Below, in pieces: positions 1 through 63,786 of a DNA stretch of 64,000 nucleotides. Position numbers and translations under genes: made by a program. Source of the DNA: Escherichia phage p000y; the sequence record MK047718.1; one strand, given 5' to 3'. The number at the start of each line of letters is the position of its first letter. Position 1 is the first letter of the stretch. A model generated the notes under the pieces. The model was given only the letters and a program-made list of their open reading frames with translations. It searched no databases and had not been told where the DNA came from.

Positions 1-2
1 GC

Positions 3-1397
3 CATAACGTAATTGTTAACTGGTGTGATATTATTCCTGACTTTGGTTCATGGTCTTGGAATGTTAACGCAATCTATGTTAAGGGTGATGAATGTCGATA
101 TAATTTCGATGGTGAAAATATCACTAACGTAGGTTCAACAGGTGGTAATGTTGTAGGAATTTATCAGTTCAAAGACTGGGAATTCTACATGGGTTCTACT
201 GATGAGGAAATTCACGAATACTGCAAAGGTCGTGATTTCGTAGAATTCCTTTACGGCAGTGCATTCAATAAATCAGAGCTTATGAATCTAATTGATTTAG
301 GTGATATGCCTAAACTTGAAAAGGCTCATGAAGTTCGTGAACTGAATCGTAGTTTTAATGCAGTTGAAATTGGCGAAGAAACTGTAACTAAATTCGCGTT
401 AACCGAACAAGGTCGAGCTCTTCAAAAAGATGAGATTTCATGGTATTTGAAAGTGAAATCAGATTCAGTTCCTCAGTTAGTTTCGGTAAATGAAAATAAT
501 TTTGAAATGGAACGTATTAAAGGTAAGCCGGCATTTGAATATATTAAATCCAAATCAAGTCTTGCTCGTCCACAAATTGTTGATGCAATTTTAGATGCAC
601 TGAAATTCAGCACGGACACTTATTTTGTAAGTCCTGAAACTGTTCGCCGTGATTTCACTAAAGAGTTCTATACGAAAGTTATTGATCGTTGTGAAAGCAT
701 TCAGCCATTGATTGATTCATTTGGTAAAATCACACACGTGAACTACACTAAAATTGGACGTCTGAAGCCAATGTTGAAACAAGCTTTAGAACATCTTATT
801 CGTTATCATAACCGTTCTCAGGGACAGTACTCTGTTATTCATGGTGACCCGAACTTCAGTAATACTATGATTACCGATAACGGCGAAGTCAAGTTTATCG
901 ACCCTCGTGGATATTTTGGTGAAACCAAGATTTACGGGCCAAAATTATATGATGAAGCTAAAGTGCTTTATGCTGTTTCAGGTTATGATGAATTCAATGC
1001 TAATCCGACCTGGGGACAGTTTACTATTGATGAAACAACTTGTAATGTGACTATTAACATCAATCCATTAGTTTACAAATATGGAAAGATGAGTTCGTTT
1101 AACGAGTATCATCATTTGGCTGTAGCAATTATCTGGATTGCATTAGGTGGTTATTTCAAGAATAATCCACTTAAAGCGGTTGCCGCATATTATAAAGGTA
1201 TGGAACTTCTGACTAAGCAATTACGTAACATGGGCCGTGTACTTCAAGACGGCTCTATTAGTTATGACGTAGCAGAACCTGTAACGGCTACTCTGATTAC
1301 AAAAAATCCTGGTAAATGGGTACTAACTGATAAAGAAACTGGTGTTTCCTATCGTCCAATCGGCGGCGATATCACTCATCAATGGGAACGAATCTAA
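3..1397 (+). CDS. Kinase-fold protein (APH/choline-kinase-like), probably 5'-truncated by the window edge
   Basis: Frame is open from nt 3 with no stop before the ATG at 189 and no clear SD at 189. Brenner-type motif HGDPNFSN...KFIDPRGYFG typical of APH/ChoK-like phosphotransferases. Confidence 0.5.
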   Translation, partial: HNVIVNWCDIIPDFGSWSWNVNAIYVKGDECRYNFDGENITNVGSTGGNVVGIYQFKDWEFYMGSTDEEIHEYCKGRDFVEFLYGSAFNKSELMNLIDLGDMPKLEKAHEVRELNRSFNAVEIGEETVTKFALTEQGRALQKDEISWYLKVKSDSVPQLVSVNENNFEMERIKGKPAFEYIKSKSSLARPQIVDAILDALKFSTDTYFVSPETVRRDFTKEFYTKVIDRCESIQPLIDSFGKITHVNYTKIGRLKPMLKQALEHLIRYHNRSQGQYSVIHGDPNFSNTMITDNGEVKFIDPRGYFGETKIYGPKLYDEAKVLYAVSGYDEFNANPTWGQFTIDETTCNVTININPLVYKYGKMSSFNEYHHLAVAIIWIALGGYFKNNPLKAVAAYYKGMELLTKQLRNMGRVLQDGSISYDVAEPVTATLITKNPGKWVLTDKETGVSYRPIGGDITHQWERI

Positions 1398-1783
1398 TGC
1401 ACCGTGTAGAAAACATGCTTAATCTTTGTTTTGATGTCGATGATTGTATAACAGAGTGGAATAACAATCGTGATTACGTGAACTTCAAACCAGACGTCGA
1501 AATGGTGTCTGCCATTAATGCCCTGTATGATGCAGGGCATACCATAACGCTTTACACTGCCCGTGGTATGAAGTCGGTAGGTCCTGGTCGTATAGCAATT
1601 GACATTCTCCCAAGTCTGATTCAGAACTTGGAAAACATTGGTTTGAAGTACCATAATTTGCTAACACATAAACCAGTATATGATTGGATTATCGACGACA
1701 AAGCTATGCGTCCTGACGAATTCAAAGCTCTTATGAATAAAGGCGAATTCGAAACATTTAAATCATATAAACCAAATCTATAA
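1397..1783 (+). CDS. Small HAD-superfamily phosphatase-like protein
   Basis: TAATG overlap with the upstream ORF. N-terminal FDVDDCIT (DxDx motif I), later TARG and IDDKA motifs consistent with a capless HAD fold. Track start 1382 is an alternative. Confidence 0.5.
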   Translation: MHRVENMLNLCFDVDDCITEWNNNRDYVNFKPDVEMVSAINALYDAGHTITLYTARGMKSVGPGRIAIDILPSLIQNLENIGLKYHNLLTHKPVYDWIIDDKAMRPDEFKALMNKGEFETFKSYKPNL

Positions 1784-1829: not shown

Positions 1830-2999
1830 ATGCAAAAAATGAATACTTTTAAAATCGGAACGAATTTTGATTTAGCTCTTCTTGATAAAATCGTAGAGCT
1901 CAATAAAACCTATCCTAATAGCTTGATAAACGAAGTATATGGCTCTACAAGAGAAATGGCTTTTGTAGCAGCCAGACCTGATTTTAGGCTTCCTGACGTT
2001 GACAAAAAGATGTTAGAAGACTACGTTAAACGTTGTAACGAATTAGGTATTTGCTTTAACTATACACTCAACACGATAAATCCTGGTTCAAAAAGAGAAC
2101 TAGTTGAGTGGAAGAAGAAAGCTATTCAGGATTATGTTCAGTATCTTTGGTCAATAGGCGTATGGCGTATTACTATCGCTAACCCTGTTGTTATGGAAAT
2201 TGTTCGTGAAGTCAATAAAGATATTGAGATTGAAGTTTCAACAATTCTACATGTCGATGCGGTAACTCAAATCAAATACTTACATGACCAATATAACATC
2301 AAAAAGGTCTGTTGCGGAATTCATAAGAACCGTTCAGTTTCTTTCCTGAAGCGTGCAGCAGAGTTTTGCAATAAGAACAATATAATATTTGAAGTTCTTG
2401 TAAATGAGTTCTGTTCTAATGCTGGTAAAGGGTATACAACACATTGTAGTTATCGTGACTCTTGCTATATTTTCCATAGTACTGATGTTACCGCTGATGA
2501 TGCTAAATCCTTAAATGGATATCCTATGCAGCACTGTATTAAAGCTCGTGATACAGACCCATTTAACTGGTTGAGAACTCGTTTTGTTCGTCCTCAAGAT
2601 TTGAAACTTTATAATGATATTGGTATCACTCAATTCAAAGTTTCAGGACGTACAGGTAGCACAGACTACATTTTGAAAGTTCTTGAAGCATACGCTTCTG
2701 AAAAGTTTGAAGGTAATTTGTTAGAACTGTGGAAGCCTTTAGAGACTATTTTCACTCTTGAAAATGAGACTGAGTTTTCACATACAGTAAATATTGAAAC
2801 CTCTTTGTTAGATGGCTTTTTAGAAAAAAGGTGGTTCAGACATCCAGATTTTGATTGTGCTAATGAAATCTGTGGGTCAACGTGTACATATTGTGAAAGG
2901 TATTATAAACGTCAATTATCTAAAAACGGGTTAGCAGAAAACTCCATATCTATTATTGATATAACTAACTCTGATGACGCTTTGAGGTACCCGGAATGA
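1830..2999 (+). CDS. Cys-rich 389-aa enzyme, peptidase-U32-like (RlhA/TrhP/UbiU family) by motif resemblance; alternatively an Fe-S protein with C-terminal CxxxCxYC
   Basis: Segments EVYGSTRE, FEVLVNEFCSNAGKGYTTHCSYRDSCY and ITQFKVSGRTGSTDYILKV resemble U32 TIM-barrel motifs as I recall them. C-terminal CANEICGSTCTYC cluster. Family call is unverified. Confidence 0.4.
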   Translation: MQKMNTFKIGTNFDLALLDKIVELNKTYPNSLINEVYGSTREMAFVAARPDFRLPDVDKKMLEDYVKRCNELGICFNYTLNTINPGSKRELVEWKKKAIQDYVQYLWSIGVWRITIANPVVMEIVREVNKDIEIEVSTILHVDAVTQIKYLHDQYNIKKVCCGIHKNRSVSFLKRAAEFCNKNNIIFEVLVNEFCSNAGKGYTTHCSYRDSCYIFHSTDVTADDAKSLNGYPMQHCIKARDTDPFNWLRTRFVRPQDLKLYNDIGITQFKVSGRTGSTDYILKVLEAYASEKFEGNLLELWKPLETIFTLENETEFSHTVNIETSLLDGFLEKRWFRHPDFDCANEICGSTCTYCERYYKRQLSKNGLAENSISIIDITNSDDALRYPE

Positions 3000-3235
3000 T
3001 TTCTAGAAAAAGTTTTAATTATAAACTTAACGAAGAGATTTTGACTATGAAACTGAACACTAACGAACAAATTCTTAAAAAGGCCCTTATGGGCCTGTTT
3101 GAAACCAAAGCGGCTAAAGTGATTAAAGAACCTGTTCAATTGGAATACTACACTGATGCATTCCTTCATAGTGTTCTTGGAAGTATAGATTCTGAAGCTT
3201 TACGTTATATCAACATTGTCAAGAAATTCAAATAA
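2996..3235 (+). CDS. Hypothetical protein (79 aa)
   Basis: ATGA overlap with the upstream gene; same-strand packing. Confidence 0.4.
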   Translation: MISRKSFNYKLNEEILTMKLNTNEQILKKALMGLFETKAAKVIKEPVQLEYYTDAFLHSVLGSIDSEALRYINIVKKFK

Positions 3236-3277: not shown

Positions 3278-3994
3278 ATGGGAAAACATAACACAATGAA
3301 ATATATCAAAGCCGCAGATTTTCAAACCGCATTTAAAGCAGTCAATCGTGAAATTTTAGAAAACCCGGAATTCGTAACTGATTCTCGTATTGGACGTTGT
3401 AATGAAATTGGGTCTATGACAGTAGTTGTTGACACTCCATCATCATTCAAAATGACCGACCCACGTATTAACCGCATCTCTTATGAATATGCCGAAGACT
3501 TCTGGAAGTTTATGATTTCTGGTGGTACCAACGCAGAAGAAGCGTTTAAGGCATATCCTAATGTCGCTAAATTTATTTCTAAACCAAAATCAGATGTTTT
3601 GCCGGCGAACTTCAACACTTTCTATGGTCCTCGCATTGCGGCCCAATTACCAACTCTTCTAAAAGAACTTAAAGAAAAACCTAACTCTCGAAGAGTTGTG
3701 TTCCAAATTCTAGAAAGTTCTGATCAGGCTTTGCTTGATTCGGACGAAACACTTGAATATCCATGTACTGACTCAGTAACTTATTATATTCGTGATGGTA
3801 AGCTTTATACCCACTGTCATATGCGTTCTCAGAACTGTGCTGTTGTTATGCAGTTGGATTTTTATCTCCAAGGAAAATTACTTCATTATATCGCTAACGA
3901 ATGCGGTGTAGAAGTTGGTGATTATACTCATACCATGGTAAGTGCCCATGTGTTTGAACGTGATTTTGATTATGTTAAAGGATTCCTTGACTAA
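3278..3994 (+). CDS. 42: Deoxypyrimidylate hydroxymethylase of the thymidylate-synthase family (gp42-like dCMP hydroxymethylase)
   Basis: PNSRR, PCTDSVTYYIRD (catalytic Cys) and MRSQN...QLD motifs align with T4 gp42 PDSRR, MCTNTVQYLIRD, MRSND...RND. Sits directly upstream of the uvsX block as in T4. Appears more diverged than neighbouring core genes. Confidence 0.75.
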   Translation: MGKHNTMKYIKAADFQTAFKAVNREILENPEFVTDSRIGRCNEIGSMTVVVDTPSSFKMTDPRINRISYEYAEDFWKFMISGGTNAEEAFKAYPNVAKFISKPKSDVLPANFNTFYGPRIAAQLPTLLKELKEKPNSRRVVFQILESSDQALLDSDETLEYPCTDSVTYYIRDGKLYTHCHMRSQNCAVVMQLDFYLQGKLLHYIANECGVEVGDYTHTMVSAHVFERDFDYVKGFLD

Positions 3995-4893
3995 TGGCTA
4001 TTTTCCGCGTACCAATCTTGAGTATGCGGTCTTATGAAACTGGACAGTATGCTATCCTTAAGGATGGCAACTTCCAACTTCATTTGCACCGTGCTAATCC
4101 GGGTGATGTGATTACATATCCACGTAATGCATCTGATATTAAAGAATGCGAACGTCTTTTCCCAGAATTTAAGTTTGTTCCATTATGGTATAAAGATAAC
4201 GCGTATAACACTCGTAAATATTTCTGGACTGAAAATGAATTTGTGGTTGATTCATTAATTGATTATTATGATTGTGATTTTCTAATCACAGATATCACTG
4301 GTTATGGCGGCGCTTTTGATGTGGAATTCAATTTCAATATCACTGCAGACCCTAATAAACCACGTTTTTATATTGATGAATTCTTAAAAACCGACATGTT
4401 GTCTGTTAATCGTTCACTTCAAACTACTGTGTTGAATGAACGTCAAAAAGAAGTGCTGGTTAACGCAGGTGCAGATGGTAATAAGATTATCGTAACGCAG
4501 AAAGTTATACGTCCTTCCATCATGCAGCGTCTTGTAGGTGATTTGGCTCCTATTCATCTAGATGGTATTTTTCATCCATTTCGAATTAGTGACCCATGTT
4601 ATCGTTTTGAACAAGTGGTTGAATGTGCAATTCAATTAGGTCAACCGCTTTATATAACCGATCCAAATAATAGCTTCGACAGAAATAAGTATCCTGAAGA
4701 AGCGCTGATTCGAATTTTTAAACCAACTAAAACTGAGTACTATCAAATTCTTAAAGGACGTCCGAAAATTCAATATTTCGAAAATCCTGAAGAAGTATTC
4801 CATCCAGGTCTTGGTGAGTTCATCTACTTTAATGCTTTAATTTCTTCGCCGTATAATATACCTAAATACGAAGATGTCGTAATCGAGGAATAA
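3994..4893 (+). CDS. Hypothetical protein (299 aa) in the position T4 uses for beta-glucosyltransferase
   Basis: TAATG-coupled to gene 42. No resemblance to T4 beta-GT that I can see. Contains a YYDCDFLITD (DxD-like) segment. Function is inferred only from position. Confidence 0.5.
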   Translation: MAIFRVPILSMRSYETGQYAILKDGNFQLHLHRANPGDVITYPRNASDIKECERLFPEFKFVPLWYKDNAYNTRKYFWTENEFVVDSLIDYYDCDFLITDITGYGGAFDVEFNFNITADPNKPRFYIDEFLKTDMLSVNRSLQTTVLNERQKEVLVNAGADGNKIIVTQKVIRPSIMQRLVGDLAPIHLDGIFHPFRISDPCYRFEQVVECAIQLGQPLYITDPNNSFDRNKYPEEALIRIFKPTKTEYYQILKGRPKIQYFENPEEVFHPGLGEFIYFNALISSPYNIPKYEDVVIEE

Positions 4894-4894
4894 A

Positions 4895-5443
4895 ATGGCT
4901 AAAATTATTTTAGTAGATGGCCCGGATAATGCTGGTAAAACAACTTTCATTAATGACATAATGGAAATTAGTGAAAGATATGTAAAGATTGATTTCCCTA
5001 AACGAACAGTTGATGGACGTTTCGATGTTAAGTCTCGAAATGAAGTTGGCTGTTTCGAAACGATGTTGAATTATTTAGACCCTACTAAGATTTATCTGTT
5101 AGACCGTGGATATATTAGTAACTGGGTTTATGGACGTATTCGACAAGATGCGGACTCGATTCTTGACGTTTATGAACAGGACTATGTTCGTCTTTGCCAA
5201 AACCATGATGTGTTCACAATTATTTTAACACGTAACGAAATGACTGAAAGTTTTGAAGACGACCTTATTACTTTGTCTTCATTCGGTTTTAATACAGTCA
5301 TTTCACATTTTGAAGAGTTTGCAATTCATAACAAAATCCAAACGTATCAATTACTTAATCATGATGGTGCTAACAAAGTTATAGGATTTAATGCAAGCGA
5401 ACGTAATTATTTGATTACAGAAATTATCAAATGGGCTCGTTAA
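4895..5443 (+). CDS. P-loop nucleotide kinase, thymidylate-kinase-like
   Basis: Walker A GPDNAGKTT and LLDRGYISNWVYG (TMK-like DR(Y/H)xxSxxxYxG) motifs; 182 aa. Confidence 0.5.
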   Translation: MAKIILVDGPDNAGKTTFINDIMEISERYVKIDFPKRTVDGRFDVKSRNEVGCFETMLNYLDPTKIYLLDRGYISNWVYGRIRQDADSILDVYEQDYVRLCQNHDVFTIILTRNEMTESFEDDLITLSSFGFNTVISHFEEFAIHNKIQTYQLLNHDGANKVIGFNASERNYLITEIIKWAR

Positions 5444-5461
5444 GAGCCATTTAAAGTTTTA

Positions 5462-5488
5462 AATGCTGTATAACCCTTAGTATATAAT
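5462..5488 (+). promoter_or_regulatory. Candidate MotA-dependent middle promoter upstream of uvsX
   Basis: MotA-box-like aaTGCTgtA with TATAAT starting 19 nt after the TGCT core; same spacing as the candidate upstream of gene 39. Confidence 0.4.
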
Positions 5489-5541
5489 CATCTTATCTTT
5501 TAAACATGAGTAAAATATAATGATGCCTATGGAAAAATACA

Positions 5542-6714
5542 ATGTCTGATTTAAAATCTCGTCTGATTAAAGCTTCTACTTCTAAAATGACTGCAGACTT
5601 GACTAAGTCTAAGCTGTTTAATAATCGTGATGAAGTCCCTACTCGTATTCCGATGTTGAATATTGCATTAGGTGGTGCACTGAATGCCGGGTTGCAATCA
5701 GGCTTAACTATTTTTGCTGCTCCTTCTAAACACTTTAAAACGTTGTTTGGGCTGACCATGGTTGCAGCATATATGAAGAAATATAAAGATGCAATCTGTT
5801 TGTTTTATGACTCAGAATTCGGTGCTTCAGAATCTTATTTTCGTTCAATGGGTGTTGATTTAGACCGTGTAGTTCATACTCCGATTCAATCTGTCGAACA
5901 ACTTAAAGTTGATATGACTAATCAGCTTGACGCGATTGAACGCGGTGATAAAGTTATTATCTTTATCGATTCAATCGGTAATACTGCATCTAAGAAAGAA
6001 ACCGAAGATGCGTTGAACGAGAAAGTTGTAGGTGATATGTCTCGTGCTAAGGCACTTAAATCTCTGTTTCGCATTGTGACCCCGTATCTGACTATTAAAG
6101 ATATTCCGTGTGTTGCAATTAACCATACCGCAATGGAAATCGGCGGACTATATCCTAAAGAGATTATGGGTGGTGGTACAGGTATTCTTTACTCTGCTAA
6201 CACTGTATTCTTTATCTCTAAACGTCAGGTTAAAGAAGGTACAGAATTGACCGGTTATGACTTCACGTTGAAAGCAGAAAAATCTCGTACAGTTAAAGAG
6301 AAATCTACTTTCCCAATCACAGTTAATTTTGATGGTGGTATCGACCCATTCAGTGGCTTGTTAGAAATGGCAACTGAAATTGGTTTTGTAGTTAAGCCTA
6401 AAGCCGGGTGGTATGCTCGTGAATTCCTTGACGAAGAAACAGGTGAAATGATTCGTGAAGAGAAATCATGGCGTGCTAAAGCTACTGATTGTGTAGAATT
6501 CTGGGGACCGTTGTTTAAACACAAACCTTTCCGTGACGCAATTGAAACTAAATATAAACTAGGTGCTATCTCTTCTATTAAAGAAGTTGATGACGCTGTT
6601 AATGACCTTATTAATTGCAAAGCAACAACTAAAGTTCCGGTTAAAACTTCTGATGCTCCGTCTGCAGCAGATATAGAAAACGACCTTGATGAAATGGAAG
6701 ATTTCGATGAATAA
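5542..6714 (+). CDS. uvsX: UvsX RecA-like recombinase
   Basis: 390 aa; strong similarity to T4 UvsX from the N-terminus onward; synteny 42-uvsX-40-41. Confidence 0.95.
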   Translation: MSDLKSRLIKASTSKMTADLTKSKLFNNRDEVPTRIPMLNIALGGALNAGLQSGLTIFAAPSKHFKTLFGLTMVAAYMKKYKDAICLFYDSEFGASESYFRSMGVDLDRVVHTPIQSVEQLKVDMTNQLDAIERGDKVIIFIDSIGNTASKKETEDALNEKVVGDMSRAKALKSLFRIVTPYLTIKDIPCVAINHTAMEIGGLYPKEIMGGGTGILYSANTVFFISKRQVKEGTELTGYDFTLKAEKSRTVKEKSTFPITVNFDGGIDPFSGLLEMATEIGFVVKPKAGWYAREFLDEETGEMIREEKSWRAKATDCVEFWGPLFKHKPFRDAIETKYKLGAISSIKEVDDAVNDLINCKATTKVPVKTSDAPSAADIENDLDEMEDFDE

Positions 6715-7048
6715 TCTCGATGATTTAAATCTAGAAATCGTTGATGAATCCCCTTCTTCGGAAGGGGAAGACATTCGCAAAGAACGAGTGTTTAATGAAT
6801 CTCTTAAAATTGTCCGTTCAGCAATGGAAAATGTCATTCAAGAGATTCTGATTACGCTTGAAGATGGTTCTCATCATATAGTCTATATTACAAAACTAGA
6901 CTGGGTTGGTGGTAAAATCGTAATGGACTTTGCAGTTCTTGACCAGGGCAGAAAAGCAGAACTTGCACCACATGTTGAAAAATGTGTTACAATGCAAGTA
7001 CAACAAGCTTTTAATGAACGGACCAAGAAAAAATTTAAATTCTTTTAA
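6707..7048 (+). CDS. 40: gp40 head vertex assembly chaperone (position-based)
   Basis: ATGA overlap with the uvsX stop; about 113 aa; lies between uvsX and 41 as in T4. Track start 6686 is a TTG. Confidence 0.5.
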   Translation: MNNLDDLNLEIVDESPSSEGEDIRKERVFNESLKIVRSAMENVIQEILITLEDGSHHIVYITKLDWVGGKIVMDFAVLDQGRKAELAPHVEKCVTMQVQQAFNERTKKKFKFF

Positions 7049-7057
7049 GGAGTTATC

Positions 7058-8500
7058 GTGGTAGAAATTATTTTGTCTCATCTAGTATACGACCAGGCTT
7101 ATTTTTCTAAGGTCTGGCCTTATATGGATTCTGAGTATTTTGAGCGTGGACCGGCAAAAAATGTCTTTAAAATTATAAAGAGCCACGTTAACGAATATAA
7201 TGCAATGCCATCTATCAATGCGTTAAAGGTGGCTTTAGATAACAGTTCTTTAACTGAAGCCGAATATAAAGGAACTTCAGACCTAATTGAAAAATTGGCT
7301 GATACTCCTGAAGACCATGAGTGGTTGGTTAAAGAAACTGAGAAATATGTCCAGCAAAAAGCGATGTATAATGCTACATCCAAAATCATTGAGATTCAGT
7401 CTAATGCTGAACTACCTCCAGAACAACGTAACAAGAAAATGCCTGACGTAGGAGCTATTCCTGATATTATGCGTCAAGCACTTTCAATTTCGTTCGATAG
7501 TTATGTTGGACATGACTGGATGGAAGACTATGAAGCACGCTGGCTTTCTTATCTAAATAAAGCACGTAAGGTCCCGTTCAAATTAAACATTCTTAATAAA
7601 ATCACCAAAGGTGGCGCAGAAACAGGTACACTGAACGTTTTAATGGCCGGTGTTAACGTTGGTAAATCTTTAGGCCTTTGTTCACTTGCTGCAGATTATC
7701 TTCAAACAGGACATAATGTTCTTTATATTTCCATGGAAATGGCTGAAGAAGTTTGTGCTAAGCGTATAGATGCAAACATGCTTGACGTATCACTCGATGA
7801 TATCGATGATGGTAACGTATCTTATGCTGAATATAAAGCCAAGATGGAAAAATGGCGTTCAAAAACAACATTAGGACGTTTAGTAGTTAAACAGTATCCT
7901 ACTGGTGGAGCTAATGCTAATACATTTCGTGCATTGCTTAATGAGTTAAAACTTAAGAAGAACTTTGTGCCATCTGTAATCATGGTTGATTACTTAGGTA
8001 TTTGTGGGTCTTGTCGTATCAGAGTTTACACTGAAAATAGCTACACATTAGTTAAAGCTATCGCAGAAGAACTTCGTGCATTAGCAGTAGAATCTGAAAC
8101 AGTTCTATGGACTGCAGCTCAAGTAGGACGTGCAGCATGGGATGCTTCAGACATGAACATGAGTGATATCGCAGAATCGGCAGGTTTACCAGCAACGGCA
8201 GATTTCATGTTGGCTGTAATTGAAACCGAAGAACTTGCACAAGCTGAACAACAACTTATCAAACAAATCAAATCACGATACGGCGATAAGAATAAGTGGA
8301 ATAAATTCCTGATGGGTGTACGTAAAGGCAATCAGAAATGGGTTGAGATTGAGCAAGAAGGCATGAACACACCTAACACAGTAAATGAAAACGCAGGTGC
8401 TCAGATGCGTCAGGCAGAGGTGAATCGTACGGAACGCGTAGGTAAAGCCAAAGCAACACGTGCTGACCTAGATAGCTTAGCCAATGAGTTAAAATTTTAA
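7058..8500 (+). CDS. 41: gp41 replicative DNA helicase (DnaB-like)
   Basis: GTG start with AAGGAG SD; 480 aa, near-identical to T4 gp41 over long stretches (MVEIILSHL..., GVNVGKSLGLCSLAADYLQ). Confidence 0.95.
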   Translation: MVEIILSHLVYDQAYFSKVWPYMDSEYFERGPAKNVFKIIKSHVNEYNAMPSINALKVALDNSSLTEAEYKGTSDLIEKLADTPEDHEWLVKETEKYVQQKAMYNATSKIIEIQSNAELPPEQRNKKMPDVGAIPDIMRQALSISFDSYVGHDWMEDYEARWLSYLNKARKVPFKLNILNKITKGGAETGTLNVLMAGVNVGKSLGLCSLAADYLQTGHNVLYISMEMAEEVCAKRIDANMLDVSLDDIDDGNVSYAEYKAKMEKWRSKTTLGRLVVKQYPTGGANANTFRALLNELKLKKNFVPSVIMVDYLGICGSCRIRVYTENSYTLVKAIAEELRALAVESETVLWTAAQVGRAAWDASDMNMSDIAESAGLPATADFMLAVIETEELAQAEQQLIKQIKSRYGDKNKWNKFLMGVRKGNQKWVEIEQEGMNTPNTVNENAGAQMRQAEVNRTERVGKAKATRADLDSLANELKF

Positions 8501-9592: not shown

Positions 9593-9961
9593 ATGAAAAA
9601 ATTAATCGCTTTAGCAATGGTATTTGGATTAACCGGATGTGGTGCCCACGGCTTTATCCCTAATAACGTTGGCCAACTGATTTACAATCCGAATGTTAAA
9701 CAGTACGACCAACCTAAAGTTGAAGTGGAAGATCCGGTTACTGTAGGTAATCGAATGATTCAAGCTGATGCTCATGCTCAACGTTATCGTGATTCTGATA
9801 CTGTAGCATTGTCAAAAGAACAACGCGTTAAAGAACATTGTCTACAGGCTACTGAAATCGCATTCATTCGCTATGTTGAAACAACTGGTAAAGAGCCTAC
9901 CCAGAAACAAATCGCGAATAACTACGTCCAGTGTATTGAACGTTTAAACAAATTTAATTAA
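9593..9961 (+). CDS. Putative lipoprotein (122 aa)
   Basis: Signal peptide with lipobox LTGC (MKKLIALAMVFGLTGCGA); own early promoter at 9535-9564. Confidence 0.55.
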   Translation: MKKLIALAMVFGLTGCGAHGFIPNNVGQLIYNPNVKQYDQPKVEVEDPVTVGNRMIQADAHAQRYRDSDTVALSKEQRVKEHCLQATEIAFIRYVETTGKEPTQKQIANNYVQCIERLNKFN

Positions 9962-10022
9962 TTGGTTTACGCAAAAGTTAAAACAAGATACTATAAACAT
10001 AACAAATCAAGAGGAAATTAAC

Positions 10023-10271
10023 ATGGAATTATTCGTAGCTAGTTCAGTAGCAGTTTTAATCGCAGGTATTGGTTCAATCATCATTTACATGTTGCCTTGG
10101 GTAATCGCACTTATTCGTGGCACAAAAAGCACAACAGCAATCTTCTTTGTATCTTTACTCTTTAACTGGACGATGATTGGTTGGATTGGAACTTTAATTT
10201 GGTCTATCGTTGCCGAAAAGAAATCTGCTCAGCAGCCTCAACAAGTAATTATTATTCGCGAAAAAGAATAA
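10023..10271 (+). CDS. Small membrane protein (82 aa, two predicted TM segments)
   Basis: Hydrophobic segments VASSVAVLIAGIGSIIIYMLPWVIALI and AIFFVSLLFNWTMIGWIGTLIWSIV; RBS GAGGAA. Confidence 0.5.
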   Translation: MELFVASSVAVLIAGIGSIIIYMLPWVIALIRGTKSTTAIFFVSLLFNWTMIGWIGTLIWSIVAEKKSAQQPQQVIIIREKE

Positions 10272-10275
10272 ACTT

Positions 10276-10305
10276 GTTTACATTATAGATGGACTATAGT
10301 ATAGT
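10276..10305 (+). promoter_or_regulatory. T4-type early promoter with inverted repeat GGACTA/TAGTCC flanking the -10
   Basis: GTTTAC...ggactatagtatagtagtcc; upstream of sp. Confidence 0.55.
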
Positions 10306-10334
10306 AGTCCTATCAAATCAACTAAGGAGTTAAA

Positions 10335-10628
10335 ATGAAAAAGTTATCATTGGCAGCAATCTTACTTGCAGTATCATGTGCACCGGCTCCAGTTACGGCA
10401 GGTTATGATAAAGACCTCTGTGAGTGGTCAATGACTGCAAATCAAGAAGATGTTGAACAACAAATCTTCTCTGATATCATGAACATCACTAAACGAGACC
10501 GTCCTAATATGGTTAATAAAGTTGTTGAACAACTTAAGTCTGGTGGTATCATGCAGTACAACTATGTTTTGTATTGTGACCCTAATTTCGATAACAAAGA
10601 TATCGTAACCGAAATCACAGGTGAATAA
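10335..10628 (+). CDS. sp: Spackle (periplasmic inhibitor of the gp5 lysozyme, superinfection exclusion)
   Basis: Signal peptide plus AGYDKDLCEWSMTA...GGIMQYNYVLYCD matches T4 Sp as recalled; AAGGAG SD. Confidence 0.8.
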   Translation: MKKLSLAAILLAVSCAPAPVTAGYDKDLCEWSMTANQEDVEQQIFSDIMNITKRDRPNMVNKVVEQLKSGGIMQYNYVLYCDPNFDNKDIVTEITGE

Positions 10629-11280
10629 TATGATTTATTATATGCACAAAAACGCACCATTTAAATATGGTAAATTTCCTAATGCACAATGTTATAATAT
10701 AACGCCGAACGAAAATAATAACGGATATCATATTGGTGTAATTTTTGTAATTGTTAAAGATAACGAAATCATTGCCTGGGCCGATTTTAAAGGTACAACA
10801 TATGATGTTAATCCTGTGCCTTTCACATATTACAATATAATGGATTTGGCATATGATTATAATTGGTTTAATCATGACACGTTGGCTCATATTGAAGGTG
10901 TAGGATTTGACATCTCTTATTCTAGCTATTCATTATGTCCTATGAGCCGAGCTCACGGTAAAGATGTATCATATCTTTCAATTCGGAAACGTGTAAACTT
11001 CAAACGTAGTACAGAGTATGTTGGTGGACTCTTTGTTAAAGATAATAAAATAACCCGTATTAGTTATCCTTTAAGTGTAGGTCAAAAAGATGTTGACGTT
11101 GATTTGGACTTAACTGAAAATAACATTAATCGTATTGCTTCTGTATATTTTGATATCGATGAAAAAATTGTAGTGTGTGGATACGAATTACCACCTGAAG
11201 AAAAGGCTGAAGCAATTGAAGTCGAATTAGAAATTTCTGTTGATGACCAAATATTTAATGCATTTATGAATCGAGGTTAA
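10621..11280 (+). CDS. Hypothetical protein (219 aa)
   Basis: Overlaps the sp stop; same-strand packing; lies in the 61.x interval. Confidence 0.5.
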   Translation: MNNMIYYMHKNAPFKYGKFPNAQCYNITPNENNNGYHIGVIFVIVKDNEIIAWADFKGTTYDVNPVPFTYYNIMDLAYDYNWFNHDTLAHIEGVGFDISYSSYSLCPMSRAHGKDVSYLSIRKRVNFKRSTEYVGGLFVKDNKITRISYPLSVGQKDVDVDLDLTENNINRIASVYFDIDEKIVVCGYELPPEEKAEAIEVELEISVDDQIFNAFMNRG

Positions 11281-11281
11281 A

Positions 11282-11479
11282 ATGACTACTGCAATTTGCA
11301 CTGGTTCTAAAATTAGTGTTTTTACAAGTTTTGAAGATTATGAAGTTGTTTCAAAACACCAATGCCATATTAGCGTAAAAGCTAATGACGGTGTAATTTG
11401 GAATATTCCACAGTATGAAGGCACTACATATGAAGTCACAGATATAAATGGTAACAAAGCAATCTTTGTAATTGATTAA
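11282..11479 (+). CDS. Hypothetical protein (65 aa)
   Basis: Tightly packed ORF starting 2 nt after the previous stop. Confidence 0.4.
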   Translation: MTTAICTGSKISVFTSFEDYEVVSKHQCHISVKANDGVIWNIPQYEGTTYEVTDINGNKAIFVID

Positions 11480-11498
11480 ATATACTCAGGAGGTACCT

Positions 11499-11966
11499 AT
11501 GGGTATTATTAACACTGCAATAGATTCTGTTTACGCATATAAGTTTATTCGACTAATGCAAAAACCTTTTACCGAATGGAAAGCATACGAAGCCAAAATC
11601 ATCGATGAACGTGGAAGTGTTCTTAAACGCCCTTCCACTCCTGAAGAGAAAGCGGCTTATACACCTTTTCATGCTTCAGTTCGTTCAATGAAGCGAATGA
11701 TGAACACTGTTCCAGGTCTTAATGGAATGGCATCAATGATGTCTGCCTGGAGTGCTGTAGCATCCCGCTATAACATTACAGAAGAACAGCAGAAAGAAAT
11801 ATTTAAAGAACTCCCTTTATTTGAGGATATGGTGGCTGGTGATTCAGGTGGCAGCCCTCAAGCTATTGCATCAGGAACAACCACAGGTGCAGTCGTAAAT
11901 AAAGGTCCAGAACAAATTCCTTCCAAGAAAAGAAAGCGAATTAAAGTAAATATTAATAAGTTGTGA
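11499..11966 (+). CDS. Hypothetical protein (about 155 aa)
   Basis: ATG at 11499 preceded by a strong SD (CAGGAGG) with 5-nt spacing; track start 11472 is a TTG inside the previous ORF. Confidence 0.5.
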   Translation: MGIINTAIDSVYAYKFIRLMQKPFTEWKAYEAKIIDERGSVLKRPSTPEEKAAYTPFHASVRSMKRMMNTVPGLNGMASMMSAWSAVASRYNITEEQQKEIFKELPLFEDMVAGDSGGSPQAIASGTTTGAVVNKGPEQIPSKKRKRIKVNINKL

Positions 11967-25801: not shown

Positions 25802-26902
25802 ATGAAAGTTATGTTTATCCCATCTCGCGCAGTCCCATTTAACCCAGAACGTGTACAAGGTGGTCTTGAAGCAGTACATTTAAATGTGTTGAAATATTTA
25901 GTTTCTATCTGTGCTGATATTGATTATATCGGTTTTGATAATGACACATTTGGTGATTGGAAGGTTAATCATCATCCTGTTGGTCATCTGACAAAATTCA
26001 GTCTAGGTATGAGTTATACTATGGCTCGTAAGATTGTTGAACTAGCCGGCATCCATGAATACGATTTCGTTGTTACTATGGAACCGACTAAACTAACCGT
26101 TCAGGCAATTAAAGACGCAGGCCTCTCTAAAGTTCATAAGAATTTTATGGCAACACCATTTGAACCGGTATCTCGTGGCATTGTTCAAATTTGGGACCAG
26201 ACTATTCAAATTCATAAGAATGGTGGTAAGAGTTATGCTCCTACTAAAGCCTTCCGTGAATTTGAACGCAAATATTGTTATATGACTTCAGGTCTGACTG
26301 ACAAAATTGATTATGATTATTGGCGAGCAAATCCGTTGTTTGAAGCCGAAGATTATCCGGTTATTTGTTTGAATGAGAAACCTGAAGTTCTTCCGGCGAC
26401 GGATCTGATTATTAGTGCACAACGTTATGACACTAAAATGCGTCGTACTGATGTTGCTCTTGAAGCGATTAAAGCACTAGGCGAAAATGGTGCAGGATAC
26501 TGTCCTAGTAAATGGGCACCACCAGCTAAATATCCTGTTATTATTGATGCTCCACACAGTGAAATCATGGAACGCCTTAAAACAGCTAAAGCACTTATTA
26601 ATACGTGTCCTGACACAGGTACGGTAGAGAATAGTTCTATTGAAGCCATCTCTAAAGGTGTCCCTGTAATCCAGTTAGTTTTTAAGGATTATCCTCATGC
26701 GACATTTGAATACGACCCAGATACTGTGCGTGTAGAAATTGATTCCTCTACTCCTAAGAAAGAAGTAGTTGCGCTTTACACAAAAGCTGTATTAGAATTC
26801 ACTGACACATACGAAGCTCGAGTTAAACGTGCTGAAGCAGTATGGAAGAAGTATAACCGAGATGCAGTTGTTGCGATGTGGGATAAAATCTTCACAGCGT
26901 AA
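25802..26902 (+). CDS. GT-B fold glycosyltransferase (GT4-like), candidate DNA sugar transferase
   Basis: C-terminal DTGTVENSSIEAISKGVPVI resembles the GT-B EX7E / donor-binding segment; 366 aa; inserted between 39 and rIIA. Confidence 0.55.
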   Translation: MKVMFIPSRAVPFNPERVQGGLEAVHLNVLKYLVSICADIDYIGFDNDTFGDWKVNHHPVGHLTKFSLGMSYTMARKIVELAGIHEYDFVVTMEPTKLTVQAIKDAGLSKVHKNFMATPFEPVSRGIVQIWDQTIQIHKNGGKSYAPTKAFREFERKYCYMTSGLTDKIDYDYWRANPLFEAEDYPVICLNEKPEVLPATDLIISAQRYDTKMRRTDVALEAIKALGENGAGYCPSKWAPPAKYPVIIDAPHSEIMERLKTAKALINTCPDTGTVENSSIEAISKGVPVIQLVFKDYPHATFEYDPDTVRVEIDSSTPKKEVVALYTKAVLEFTDTYEARVKRAEAVWKKYNRDAVVAMWDKIFTA

Positions 26903-62793: not shown

Positions 62794-63786
62794 ATGTTAC
62801 CTGTCGTCGGAAAACTTATTTCTCCAAAAGAACTGGCTGAGATTATTCCTTTGTCGGAAGCTTACGCATCACAAGTGGCTTCTCATCGCGAACAAGTTAA
62901 TTCGATTATGAACGGTGAAGACCCACGCAAACTTATTGTTGTAGGTCCTTGTTCAATTCATGACCCTATTGCTGCTGTTGAATACGGCAAACGTCTGGCT
63001 GAACTTCAAACTCGTCTTCCTAATGTTCTGTTAGTGATGCGCGTTTATTTTGAAAAGCCTCGAACTACCGTAGGTTGGAAAGGTCTTGTAAATGATCCAT
63101 ATCTTGACGGAAGTTTTGATATGAACCACGGTCTTATAGTTGCACGAACATTGTGTCGTAAACTTCTACGTATGGGACTTCCATTAGCAACTGAAGTATT
63201 AGACCCATTCACGATTAAGTATCTTTCTGGTATTTTCTCATGGGTTGCTATTGGCGCCCGTACGACTGAAAGTCAGACACATCGTGAAATTGCTTCAGGT
63301 CTACCGATGTGCGTAGGCTTCAAGAACGCAACCAATGGTTCTATTAAAGTAGCTACAGACGCGATGTATAGCGCCGCCTGGCCTCATCGGTATATGGGTA
63401 TGGACGTCGATGGTACTGTAGGCATTGTTGAAGCTGAAGGTAATCAGAATACGCATATCGTATTGCGTGGCGGGACCAACGGCCCGAACTATCATTCTTC
63501 TGATATTCAAGAAGCTTCTAACAAAGCAAGTGCAGTAGGTCTGAATCATTATGTAATGGTTGACTGTAGCCATGCAAACGCTGCTGGGCATTATAGCAAT
63601 CAAATTGGTATTGGTAAAAATTTAGCAGCTAATGATTTGGTCAAAGGAATTATGATAGAATCATTCCTACATGAAGGAAATCAAAAAATTTCTGATAATA
63701 TGTCCTATGGCGTTTCCGTTACCGATGCGTGCATCAGTTGGGAACAAACTAAAGAGCTGTTAACTTATATTAATAAGGTTCAATAA
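62794..63786 (+). CDS. 3-deoxy-D-arabino-heptulosonate-7-phosphate (DAHP) synthase, class I (AroG/AroF/AroH-like)
   Basis: LIVVGPCSIHDP, VMRVYFEKPRTTVGWKGLVNDP, GARTTESQTHRE, GFKN.T.G, IVLRGG, VMVDCSHAN and ESFLHEGNQ align with E. coli AroG motifs as recalled; 330 aa. Confidence 0.85.
   Translation: MLPVVGKLISPKELAEIIPLSEAYASQVASHREQVNSIMNGEDPRKLIVVGPCSIHDPIAAVEYGKRLAELQTRLPNVLLVMRVYFEKPRTTVGWKGLVNDPYLDGSFDMNHGLIVARTLCRKLLRMGLPLATEVLDPFTIKYLSGIFSWVAIGARTTESQTHREIASGLPMCVGFKNATNGSIKVATDAMYSAAWPHRYMGMDVDGTVGIVEAEGNQNTHIVLRGGTNGPNYHSSDIQEASNKASAVGLNHYVMVDCSHANAAGHYSNQIGIGKNLAANDLVKGIMIESFLHEGNQKISDNMSYGVSVTDACISWEQTKELLTYINKVQ

Follow-up and report, generated by a model that had tools for sequence, protein, structure and literature searches.

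Escherichia phage RB69 keeps every cytosine of its DNA hydroxylated and arabinosylated, and the sole enzyme known to perform the hydroxylation needs O2; how phages of this kind could maintain the modification in an anoxic gut is the question raised by one gene of Escherichia phage p000y (sequence record MK047718.1). The stretch analyzed here, a window of 64,000 nucleotides, shares 99.5% identity over its first 5.5 kb with the Mosigvirus Escherichia phage p000v; for many RB69-like phages the figure is 98%. The gene, an open reading frame (ORF) at 1830..2999 on the plus strand, encodes a putative iron-sulfur (Fe-S) enzyme of the peptidase U32 family that shares 99.2% identity with its ortholog RB69 gp50, the 'peptidase' adjoining RB69ORF049c. 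In RB69 and in Acinetobacter phage DLP3, every cytosine is replaced with mono- or poly-arabinosylated 5-hydroxycytosine (Lee et al., NAR 2026; PMC13326640). In RB69 DNA, where the replacing base is arabinosyl-5-hydroxycytosine, the replacement is complete and is made at the level of deoxycytidine monophosphate (dCMP) (PMC13326640). RB69 gp48, a thymidylate synthase (TS)-like protein with bound flavin mononucleotide (FMN), makes 5-hydroxy-dCMP using oxygen from 18O2 (PMC13326640), and therefore cannot work without O2. Because RB69 DNA holds 5-hydroxycytosine, and in view of the gene context, the U32 protein is probably an O2-independent, prephenate-dependent dCMP C5-hydroxylase, the anaerobic twin of the O2-dependent TS-like enzyme. 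The argument draws on family membership, fold, a conserved metal-ligand pattern, gene context and phyletic associations, which the analysis established, together with the published 5-hydroxycytosine in the DNA (PMC13326640); from these we infer that the phage protein binds an Fe-S cluster, uses prephenate, needs no O2 and acts on the substrate proposed.

An earlier note, made from the DNA alone, had placed the U32 gene next to a pyrimidine hydroxymethylase and knew of no described T-even system of this kind. Both statements need correction: the RB69 ortholog of the neighboring protein (98.7% identity) is a flavin- and O2-dependent dCMP 5-hydroxylase, and arabinosyl-5-hydroxycytosine has been described in RB69, where the proven hydroxylase is the TS-like enzyme and not the U32 protein (PMC13326640). 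In that paper gp50 appears only in Table 1, under the label 'sugar or heterocycle reductase', and the discussion refers to other pyrimidine hydroxylation pathways for RNA, citing the papers on RlhA and 5-hydroxyuridine (ho5U), with no connection made to gp50. Neither U32 nor a peptidase is mentioned in PMC13326640, PMC13390438, PMC12838424, PMC6024577 or a transposon-mutagenesis preprint; prephenate, sought in PMC13326640, and 3-deoxy-D-arabino-heptulosonate 7-phosphate (DAHP), sought in PMC6024577, are likewise unmentioned there. It seems that nobody has assigned an O2-free hydroxylation step to gp50 in this literature, a comparison that leaves aside He et al. 2026 and Mahler et al. 2025, either of which might discuss the gene.

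The protein belongs to the U32 family by hidden Markov model (HMM) and by fold. The 389-amino-acid, cysteine-rich ORF described in the earlier note is present, with 13 Cys, and its true start is likely the second ATG, at 1839, giving 386 residues beginning MNTFK, in agreement with the p000v annotation and with the N-termini of most homologs. The Pfam Peptidase_U32 model (PF01136), whose use the note had recommended, matches residues 97-289 with E=7.4e-11 and 42.2 bits (gathering threshold 22.4), and a precomputed PF01136 match exists for nearly all of 120 listed homologs. The four segments that had been singled out are all found in the protein: EVYGSTRE at residues 35-42, FEVLVNEFCSNAGKGYTTHCSYRDSCY at 187-213, ITQFKVSGRTGS at 266-277 and CANEICGSTCTYC at 343-355. 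The resemblance of the first three to U32 proteins, pointed out in the earlier note, proved sound. In an alignment with E. coli UbiU, UbiV, RlhA and TrhP, residues Y37, G110, E188, C212, G273, Y280 and W335 are invariant, and C206, K270 and R274 are nearly so, so that the segments correspond to the AVY.G, LE.F...C and K.EGR regions of the family. The gp50 ortholog has a TIM-barrel fold like that of Mk0906 (PDB 5d88), the only solved U32 structure, from which the protein differs widely in sequence (14% identity, 247 residues); the fold match is recorded for RB69 gp50 in Table 1 of PMC13326640. Neither the protein nor a 109-sequence profile gave a useful match when searched against PDB sequences, and hhalign comparison of the profile with single UbiU and TrhP sequences returned probabilities of 6-17%, which are uninformative because the targets were single sequences.

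Within the family, the phage protein is a divergent single-domain member of a separate subfamily outside the UbiU, RlhA and TrhP groups. It scores 18.4 bits against the NCBIfam UbiU equivalog, whose cut-off is 440, and matched no other U32 equivalog in NCBIfam; the Pfam scan gave PF01136 only, so that the accessory domains which TrhP and RlhA possess are lacking. When 1.84 billion representative proteins were searched with a profile, 496 clusters (50% identity) were assigned to the subfamily at E<=1e-30.

UbiU and UbiV each bind a 4Fe-4S cluster via four Cys (C169, C176, C193 and C232 in UbiU), and a CX6CX15CX3/4C-type motif is kept in eight of ten U32 subfamilies (PMC6747719). The corresponding cysteine motif claimed for the phage protein is present in part: C206 and C212 align with the UbiU ligands C169 and C176 (with a spacing of X5, not X6) and C236 lies near C232, but the position of C193 is occupied by Ser. 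Nine Cys never vary among 121 close homologs and a tenth, C180, is kept in 98%, the whole set comprising C161, C180, C195, C206, C212, C236, C343, C348, C352 and C355. Across 129 divergent members of the subfamily, Cys is retained at positions 195 (98%), 206 (100%) and 236 (100%), while position 212 is divided between Cys (59%) and His (40%), as would be typical of a metal ligand; the C-terminal CX4CX3CX2C motif (C343, C348, C352, C355) is 94-95% conserved. Because C195 is 98-100% conserved and position 212 alternates between Cys and His, a putative four-ligand set (C195, C206, C212, C236) would be present in a variant arrangement. The conservation of the cysteines across the divergent relatives thus suggests two four-ligand metal sites, one a variant of the family cluster site and the other new to the subfamily, with the C-terminal four-Cys motif treated here as a candidate auxiliary cluster or zinc site. 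That motif contains a radical-SAM-like spacing (C348-X3-C352-X2-C355, with Y354), which had prompted a hint of radical S-adenosylmethionine (SAM) chemistry, where a CX3CX2C motif supplies three Cys ligands close to the N-terminal end of a partial TIM barrel; the reading was rejected, as no radical-SAM model, PF04055 included, matched at E<=1 in the Pfam scan and as the motif, which lies at the C-terminus, has a fourth invariant Cys, C343.

The proposal that U32, C5-hydroxylation and a phage DAHP synthase belong together, made in the earlier note, is strongly backed by comparative genomics, through both co-distribution and adjoining chorismate mutase and DAHP synthase genes. The DAHP synthase is real: at 62794..63786 (+), the window encodes a type I-alpha enzyme (PF00793, E=7e-75; NCBIfam aroFGH equivalog TIGR00034, 427 bits against a cut-off of 173) with 48% identity to E. 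coli AroG by BLASTP. Where AroG has P150, L175 and S180, the phage enzyme has Ile, Ile and Pro, respectively, and its N-terminus is shorter; as it differs at positions where P150L, S180F and L175D presumably give feedback-resistant enzymes, it may escape inhibition by phenylalanine. Among 50,697 phage records searched, U32 occurs in 221 (chiefly Escherichia 136, Klebsiella 26, Shigella 14, Serratia 7, Proteus 7, Yersinia 6, Enterobacter 4, Edwardsiella 3) and a gene for DAHP synthase in 212 (chiefly Escherichia 124, Klebsiella 25, Shigella 12, Proteus 7, Serratia 6, Enterobacter 4, Edwardsiella 3), the counts per genus being nearly identical. The TS-like hydroxylase is present in 373 records; beyond those of the U32 genera, they include 57 from Acinetobacter, 20 from Rhizobium and ~40 more from Escherichia (Dhakavirus-like), and both U32 and DAHP synthase appear absent from these TS-like-bearing Acinetobacter, Rhizobium and Dhakavirus phages. 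In the syntenic clusters of one Dhakavirus and one Acinetobacter Lazarusvirus, no U32 gene lies between the phosphatase and the TS-like gene.

Chorismate mutase genes adjoin U32 in most of the related loci. In 12 of 15 U32-bearing Straboviridae loci from IMG/VR (L015-L025 and L027), a chorismate mutase (PF01817, 36-50 bits, cut-off 27) is encoded between U32 and the TS-like gene by a small ORF after U32, at ~11160-11900. By tblastn it is found in 56 phage records, essentially those of U32 carriers other than Mosigvirus, and it follows U32 in Straboviridae of Klebsiella, Enterobacter, Serratia, Yersinia, Edwardsiella, Erwinia, Proteus, Providencia and Shewanella.

The association extends beyond the Straboviridae. 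Homologs with 46-58% identity occur on contigs of uncultured phages (up to 466 kb, mostly 24-40% GC) that encode DnaE-type polymerases. After collapse at 90% identity, 25 non-Straboviridae lineages were available, for which partner genes were counted within 10 kb of U32. An Aat-like glycosyltransferase, its gene often overlapping U32, is present in 14 lineages, AfhE-like enzymes and dUTPase/MazG-like proteins in 11 each, a Tmk-like kinase in 10, arabinose-5-phosphate isomerase and a KdsC-like haloacid dehalogenase (HAD) phosphatase in eight each, and dCMP deaminase in seven; in many of these phages, arabinosyltransferase homologs are encoded directly upstream of U32. No convincing TS-like hydroxylase lies within this distance in any of the 25, and the one lineage with a TS homolog has a protein closer to ThyA. 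DAHP synthase and/or chorismate mutase genes accompany U32 in six lineages, all within ~1.7 kb. For instance, L043 has a chorismate mutase gene that begins 3 nucleotides past the U32 stop codon, as do L046 and its relatives; L038-L040 encode a DAHP synthase-chorismate mutase fusion one gene upstream of U32; and a type I-beta DAHP synthase gene directly follows U32 in L004 and L026. At least three phage groups, with U32 proteins of 41-62% identity, pair U32 with shikimate-pathway genes of differing types. In IMGVR_UViG_3300035520_000516 (L063+L054+L064; 31.5% GC), of which 39.5 of 49.3 kb (80%) was recovered, the module runs dUTPase_2-like, Tmk-like kinase, glycosyltransferase, U32 and DnaE-type polymerase, with a dCMP deaminase also present, and the recovered 80% of this 49-kb contig contains no TS/ThyA homolog. 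In the uncultured phages, U32 holds the position of the base-modifying enzyme, like gp42-type enzymes in T-even nucleotide-modification modules.

In the mechanism proposed, the U32 enzyme would need no O2 to hydroxylate a deoxypyrimidine nucleotide, most likely dCMP, at C5, and would take the oxygen atom from prephenate, as UbiU/UbiV do and as has been suggested for TrhP and RlhA. Once phosphorylated, the resulting 5-hydroxy-dCMP would enter DNA through the phage polymerase, where the neighboring glycosyltransferase would then arabinosylate it. In Mosigvirus, U32 would run parallel to the adjacent flavin- and O2-dependent TS-like synthase, and cytosines would stay fully modified in the anoxic gut. 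The phage DAHP synthase would raise flux through the shikimate pathway, with one prephenate used per hydroxylation; since this genus is without the phage chorismate mutase of its relatives, the chorismate mutase domains of host PheA and TyrA would supply the last step. With ~6e4 cytosines per genome and a burst of 100-200, the demand is estimated to be on the order of 1e7 prephenate molecules per infected cell, by the same estimate a sizeable fraction of the cell's normal phenylalanine plus tyrosine flux; a demand of this size would explain a dedicated DAHP synthase and chorismate mutase.

Several known systems resemble the proposed one in part. Prephenate is the oxygen donor for UbiU/UbiV and has been proposed as such for all U32 hydroxylases, a family described as almost exclusively bacterial with fewer archaeal members (PMC10990095). 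RlhA is required for 5-hydroxycytidine (ho5C) at position 2501 of 23S ribosomal RNA (rRNA) (PMC5727448), while ho5U34 of transfer RNA (tRNA) is made by twin pathways, one through prephenate-dependent TrhP and the other through O2-dependent TrhO (PMC6599085). The phage protein shares with TrhP (YegQ) and RlhA (YdcP) the PF01136 domain and, as proposed, pyrimidine C5-hydroxylation with prephenate and an Fe-S cluster in place of O2; TrhP further resembles it in having an O2-dependent twin, TrhO, as the phage U32 would have in the TS-like enzyme beside it. In contrast to both, the phage protein is viral, 18-20% identical to them, and a single domain of ~360-390 amino acids lacking C-terminal extensions; its Cys pattern differs and includes the extra C-terminal CX4CX3CX2C, and its presumed substrate is a deoxynucleotide for genome-wide DNA modification rather than one RNA position. 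UbiU and UbiV, also U32 proteins, hold a 4Fe-4S cluster by conserved Cys, of which two UbiU ligand positions are kept in the phage protein, and are the anaerobic counterparts of the flavin monooxygenases UbiI/H/F, with prephenate the proven donor (PMC10990095). They differ in forming a heterodimer with one cluster each and in acting on a lipid with the helper UbiT, whereas the phage protein has two candidate metal sites on one polypeptide. RB69 gp48, DLP3 gp80 and the phage HY126 homolog would share with U32 the product, 5-hydroxy-dCMP, as well as the pathway and an adjacent gene position, but have a thymidylate synthase fold, use flavin and O2, and are of proven activity (PMC13326640). Finally, phage CmoA-CmoX, responsible for 5-carboxymethylcytosine in Synechococcus phage S-B43, likewise reuses a prephenate-dependent enzyme, that of tRNA uridine-5-oxyacetic acid (cmo5U), for DNA hypermodification, and prephenate availability has been raised as an open issue there (PMC12783734). 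However, CmoA works as a SAM carboxylase, CmoX is homologous to C5-methyltransferases and modifies DNA, and neither hydroxylation nor a U32 protein is involved; CmoA is the main alternative consumer of prephenate, and no CmoA-like gene occurs in the U32 clusters. If the U32 protein is an anaerobic dCMP hydroxylase, it would provide a third case of aerobic/anaerobic pairing, after UbiIHF/UbiUV and TrhO/TrhP.

Several observations weigh against an anaerobic dCMP hydroxylase. To our knowledge, no U32 enzyme acts on mononucleotides or DNA. Acinetobacter and Dhakavirus phages carry the same cluster without U32, which is therefore dispensable, at least aerobically, as it is in the Rhizobium phages from which it appears absent; and since the host of Dhakaviruses, E. 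coli, is a facultative anaerobe, the absence of U32 coincides only imperfectly with aerobic hosts. An HMM of phage chorismate mutases found no such gene in the 64-kb window. The canonical third Cys of the cluster site is absent, and C195 is proposed as its replacement from conservation. In the uncultured phages, TS-like genes could lie more than 10 kb from U32. In addition, the TS-like enzyme and a kinase suffice for 5-hydroxydeoxycytidine formation in E. coli (PMC13326640), and no U32 enzyme has been reconstituted in vitro (PMC10990095).

The alternative that fares best keeps the chemistry and changes the substrate, to cytosine in DNA after replication or to dCTP, dUMP or another pyrimidine nucleotide. 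The characterized relatives RlhA and TrhP do act on polynucleotides (PMC5727448, PMC6599085), and a dCMP deaminase gene, one of the partners counted in seven lineages, is directly upstream of U32 in L003 and L005, which would fit a substrate of the uracil series in some phages. A substrate other than dCMP is nevertheless unlikely: cytosine replacement in RB69 is complete and made at the dCMP level (PMC13326640). The extra C-terminal domains of RlhA and TrhP are absent from the phage protein, and its neighbors are mononucleotide enzymes (dUTPase/MazG-like proteins and Tmk-like kinases) arranged like T4 gp56/gp42/gp1. Hydroxylation of RNA, yielding ho5U in tRNA or ho5C in rRNA of host or phage, would tune translation during infection by T4-like phages, which encode their own tRNAs. 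RNAs are indeed the only nucleic-acid substrates known for the family (PMC5727448, PMC6599085), but both enzymes are already present in the host, the phage protein has no counterpart of the RNA-binding extensions found in TrhP and RlhA, and U32 genes whose products have diverged to 41-62% identity across lineages remain embedded in DNA-modification and deoxynucleotide modules, often overlapping the glycosyltransferase gene. A dedicated prephenate supply, moreover, implies a stoichiometric, genome-scale demand. A role in RNA modification is improbable.

A function in the sugar branch, as a step of UDP-arabinose synthesis or as a sugar/heterocycle reductase, is suggested by the label in Table 1 of PMC13326640 and by the BASEL annotation ('putative enzyme involved in UDP-arabinose biosynthesis'), as well as by the location of U32 between arabinose-activation and base-modification genes and by the AfhE-like gene near it in 11 of the 25 uncultured lineages. 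Against this, DLP3 makes tri-arabinosyl-5-hydroxycytosine from a cluster without U32 (PMC13326640), and U32 is likewise missing from the Dhakavirus and Lazarusvirus clusters. At least seven lineages (among them L007, L029, L033, L034, L041, L042 and L054) combine U32 with a glycosyltransferase and a kinase but have no AfhE or arabinose-5-phosphate isomerase. We know of no U32 enzyme that acts on sugars, and the link to chorismate mutase and DAHP synthase would be left unexplained, so that there is little likelihood of a sugar-branch role. Very little, in turn, attaches to the possibility that U32 is no hydroxylase but assists the TS-like flavoenzyme in redox chemistry, for example as its flavin reductase or as an electron-transfer protein. 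The TS-like enzyme binds FMN loosely and needs reduced flavin (PMC13326640), U32 has two putative metal or Fe-S sites, and the two genes are always neighbors in Straboviridae; yet U32 occurs without a nearby TS-like gene in 24 of the 25 other lineages, the TS-like enzyme works in E. coli without U32 (PMC13326640), and the chorismate mutase/DAHP synthase association again finds no explanation. A genuine peptidase of the collagenase-like PrtC kind, as the family name and most GenBank annotations have it, is scarcely credible and was rejected on the family literature and the gene context, since every characterized member discussed in PMC6747719 and PMC10990095, of the very few with an established function, is tied to O2-independent hydroxylation and the neighboring genes serve nucleotide and DNA modification.

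The genes around U32 in the window follow the order AfhE-like kinase/pyrophosphorylase (cut), HAD phosphatase, U32, a 79-amino-acid ORF, TS-like enzyme, glycosyltransferase, Tmk-like kinase and uvsX. The first, at 1..1397 (+), is the C-terminal part of a bifunctional arabinose-5-phosphate kinase/uridine diphosphate (UDP)-arabinose pyrophosphorylase (AfhE-like, RB69 gp52:53; kinase-like Pfam matches; PHROG 4098 profile positions 161-559). It exceeds the left end of the window: the p000v copy spans 121213-122898 and the window begins at ~121502, placing the gene start ~290 bp earlier, and the ORF at 189-1397 is merely the C-terminal kinase part. The HAD phosphatase at 1382..1783 (+) (RB69 gp51, AfhF-like; TIGR01689, 50 bits; PHROG 1238) belongs to the UDP-arabinose branch (PMC13326640). 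Downstream of U32 are the TS-like 5-hydroxy-dCMP synthase at 3278..3994 (+) (PF00303; ortholog of RB69 gp48, 98.7% identity to RB69ORF048c; PMC13326640); DNA arabinosyltransferase 1 at 3994..4893 (+) (ortholog of RB69 gp46:47; PHROG 3891), whose acceptor is the 5-OH of the base; and a thymidylate-kinase-like nucleotide kinase at 4895..5443 (+) (ortholog of RB69 gp45; PHROG 761), the last two as listed in Table 1 of PMC13326640. In Mosigviruses, including that of the window, the slot of the chorismate mutase gene is taken by the unrelated 79-amino-acid ORF, at 2996..3235 (+) (RB69ORF049c; PHROG 8601; no Pfam match), whose ATG overlaps the U32 stop codon. In L021, L023 and L027, homologs of this ORF separate U32 from the chorismate mutase gene; it therefore travels with U32 and is not a chorismate mutase; its designation as a P-loop nucleoside triphosphatase in one GenBank record is unsupported by sequence. 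Elsewhere in the window, a 366-amino-acid ORF at 25802-26902 (+), between homing-endonuclease/topoisomerase genes and rIIA and a 'hypothetical protein' in p000v, was at first suspected of being the DAHP synthase, whose actual gene is at 62794-63786; it has no Pfam match.

Some uncultured loci depart from the common arrangement. SAM-methyltransferase-fold proteins, one fused to a guanylate-kinase-like domain, flank U32 in L037 (11963-12772) and L051 (7943-9220), which by analogy with 5-methoxyuridine (mo5U) and cmo5U of tRNA suggests O-methylation or carboxymethylation of a 5-hydroxypyrimidine in DNA; none of these proteins matched a CmoA or CmoB equivalog. In the ~290-kb jumbo phage L046, a RimK-like ATP-grasp and NlpC/P60 fusion at 5873-7636 (-), a few kb from the U32-chorismate mutase pair, could be a hypermodification enzyme of the amide-ligase type. 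The 25% GC locus L004 encodes a full arabinosylation-like set, made up of an isomerase, an AfhE-like protein and a glycosyltransferase, together with U32, DAHP synthase and an NAD-dependent epimerase (6545-7999, 5940-6536, 4939-5928 and 9947-10804), so that its sugar may differ from arabinose. In the high-GC contig L032 (GC 0.59; 11167-11916), the U32 homolog lies beside OmpA-like beta-barrel and zinc-ribbon proteins, with the usual partners absent; this context is unlike the rest and possibly cellular.

Taken together, the finding is real and not ordinary: a member of a known family in a new role and arrangement, with comparative evidence for a module of prephenate supply and U32 attached to DNA hypermodification that is strong enough to justify experiments. 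The chances are about even for a broader, joint reading, in which the mostly or wholly viral U32 subfamily of ~500 clusters would be a prephenate-dependent deoxypyrimidine-nucleotide C5-hydroxylase, serving RB69-like phages as the anaerobic twin of their flavin/O2 enzyme and many uncultured phages as the sole source of the 5-hydroxyl on glycosylated, perhaps O-methylated, DNA bases, with phage DAHP synthases and chorismate mutases serving as auxiliary genes that supply the oxygen-donor metabolite for genome-wide DNA modification.

If U32 is an anaerobic hydroxylase of dCMP, it would also be the first enzyme of its family amenable to in vitro reconstitution, because its substrate would be a soluble nucleotide. 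Activity assays in vitro are still awaited for the members discussed in PMC10990095, and for UbiU/UbiV one obstacle named is hydrophobic, non-commercial substrates (PMC6747719); an enzyme using dCMP and prephenate would make the long-standing problem of U32 chemistry directly testable. Prephenate-dependent hydroxylation by U32 proteins would act on DNA precursors as well as on RNA and quinones, and would occur in viruses too. A function would be found for the DAHP synthase and chorismate mutase genes, whose presence in T4-like and other phages is unexplained, and the finding would point to further 5-oxy-pyrimidine DNA modifications in uncultured phages. For gut phages of the RB69 type, it would explain how every cytosine is kept hydroxylated and arabinosylated without oxygen.

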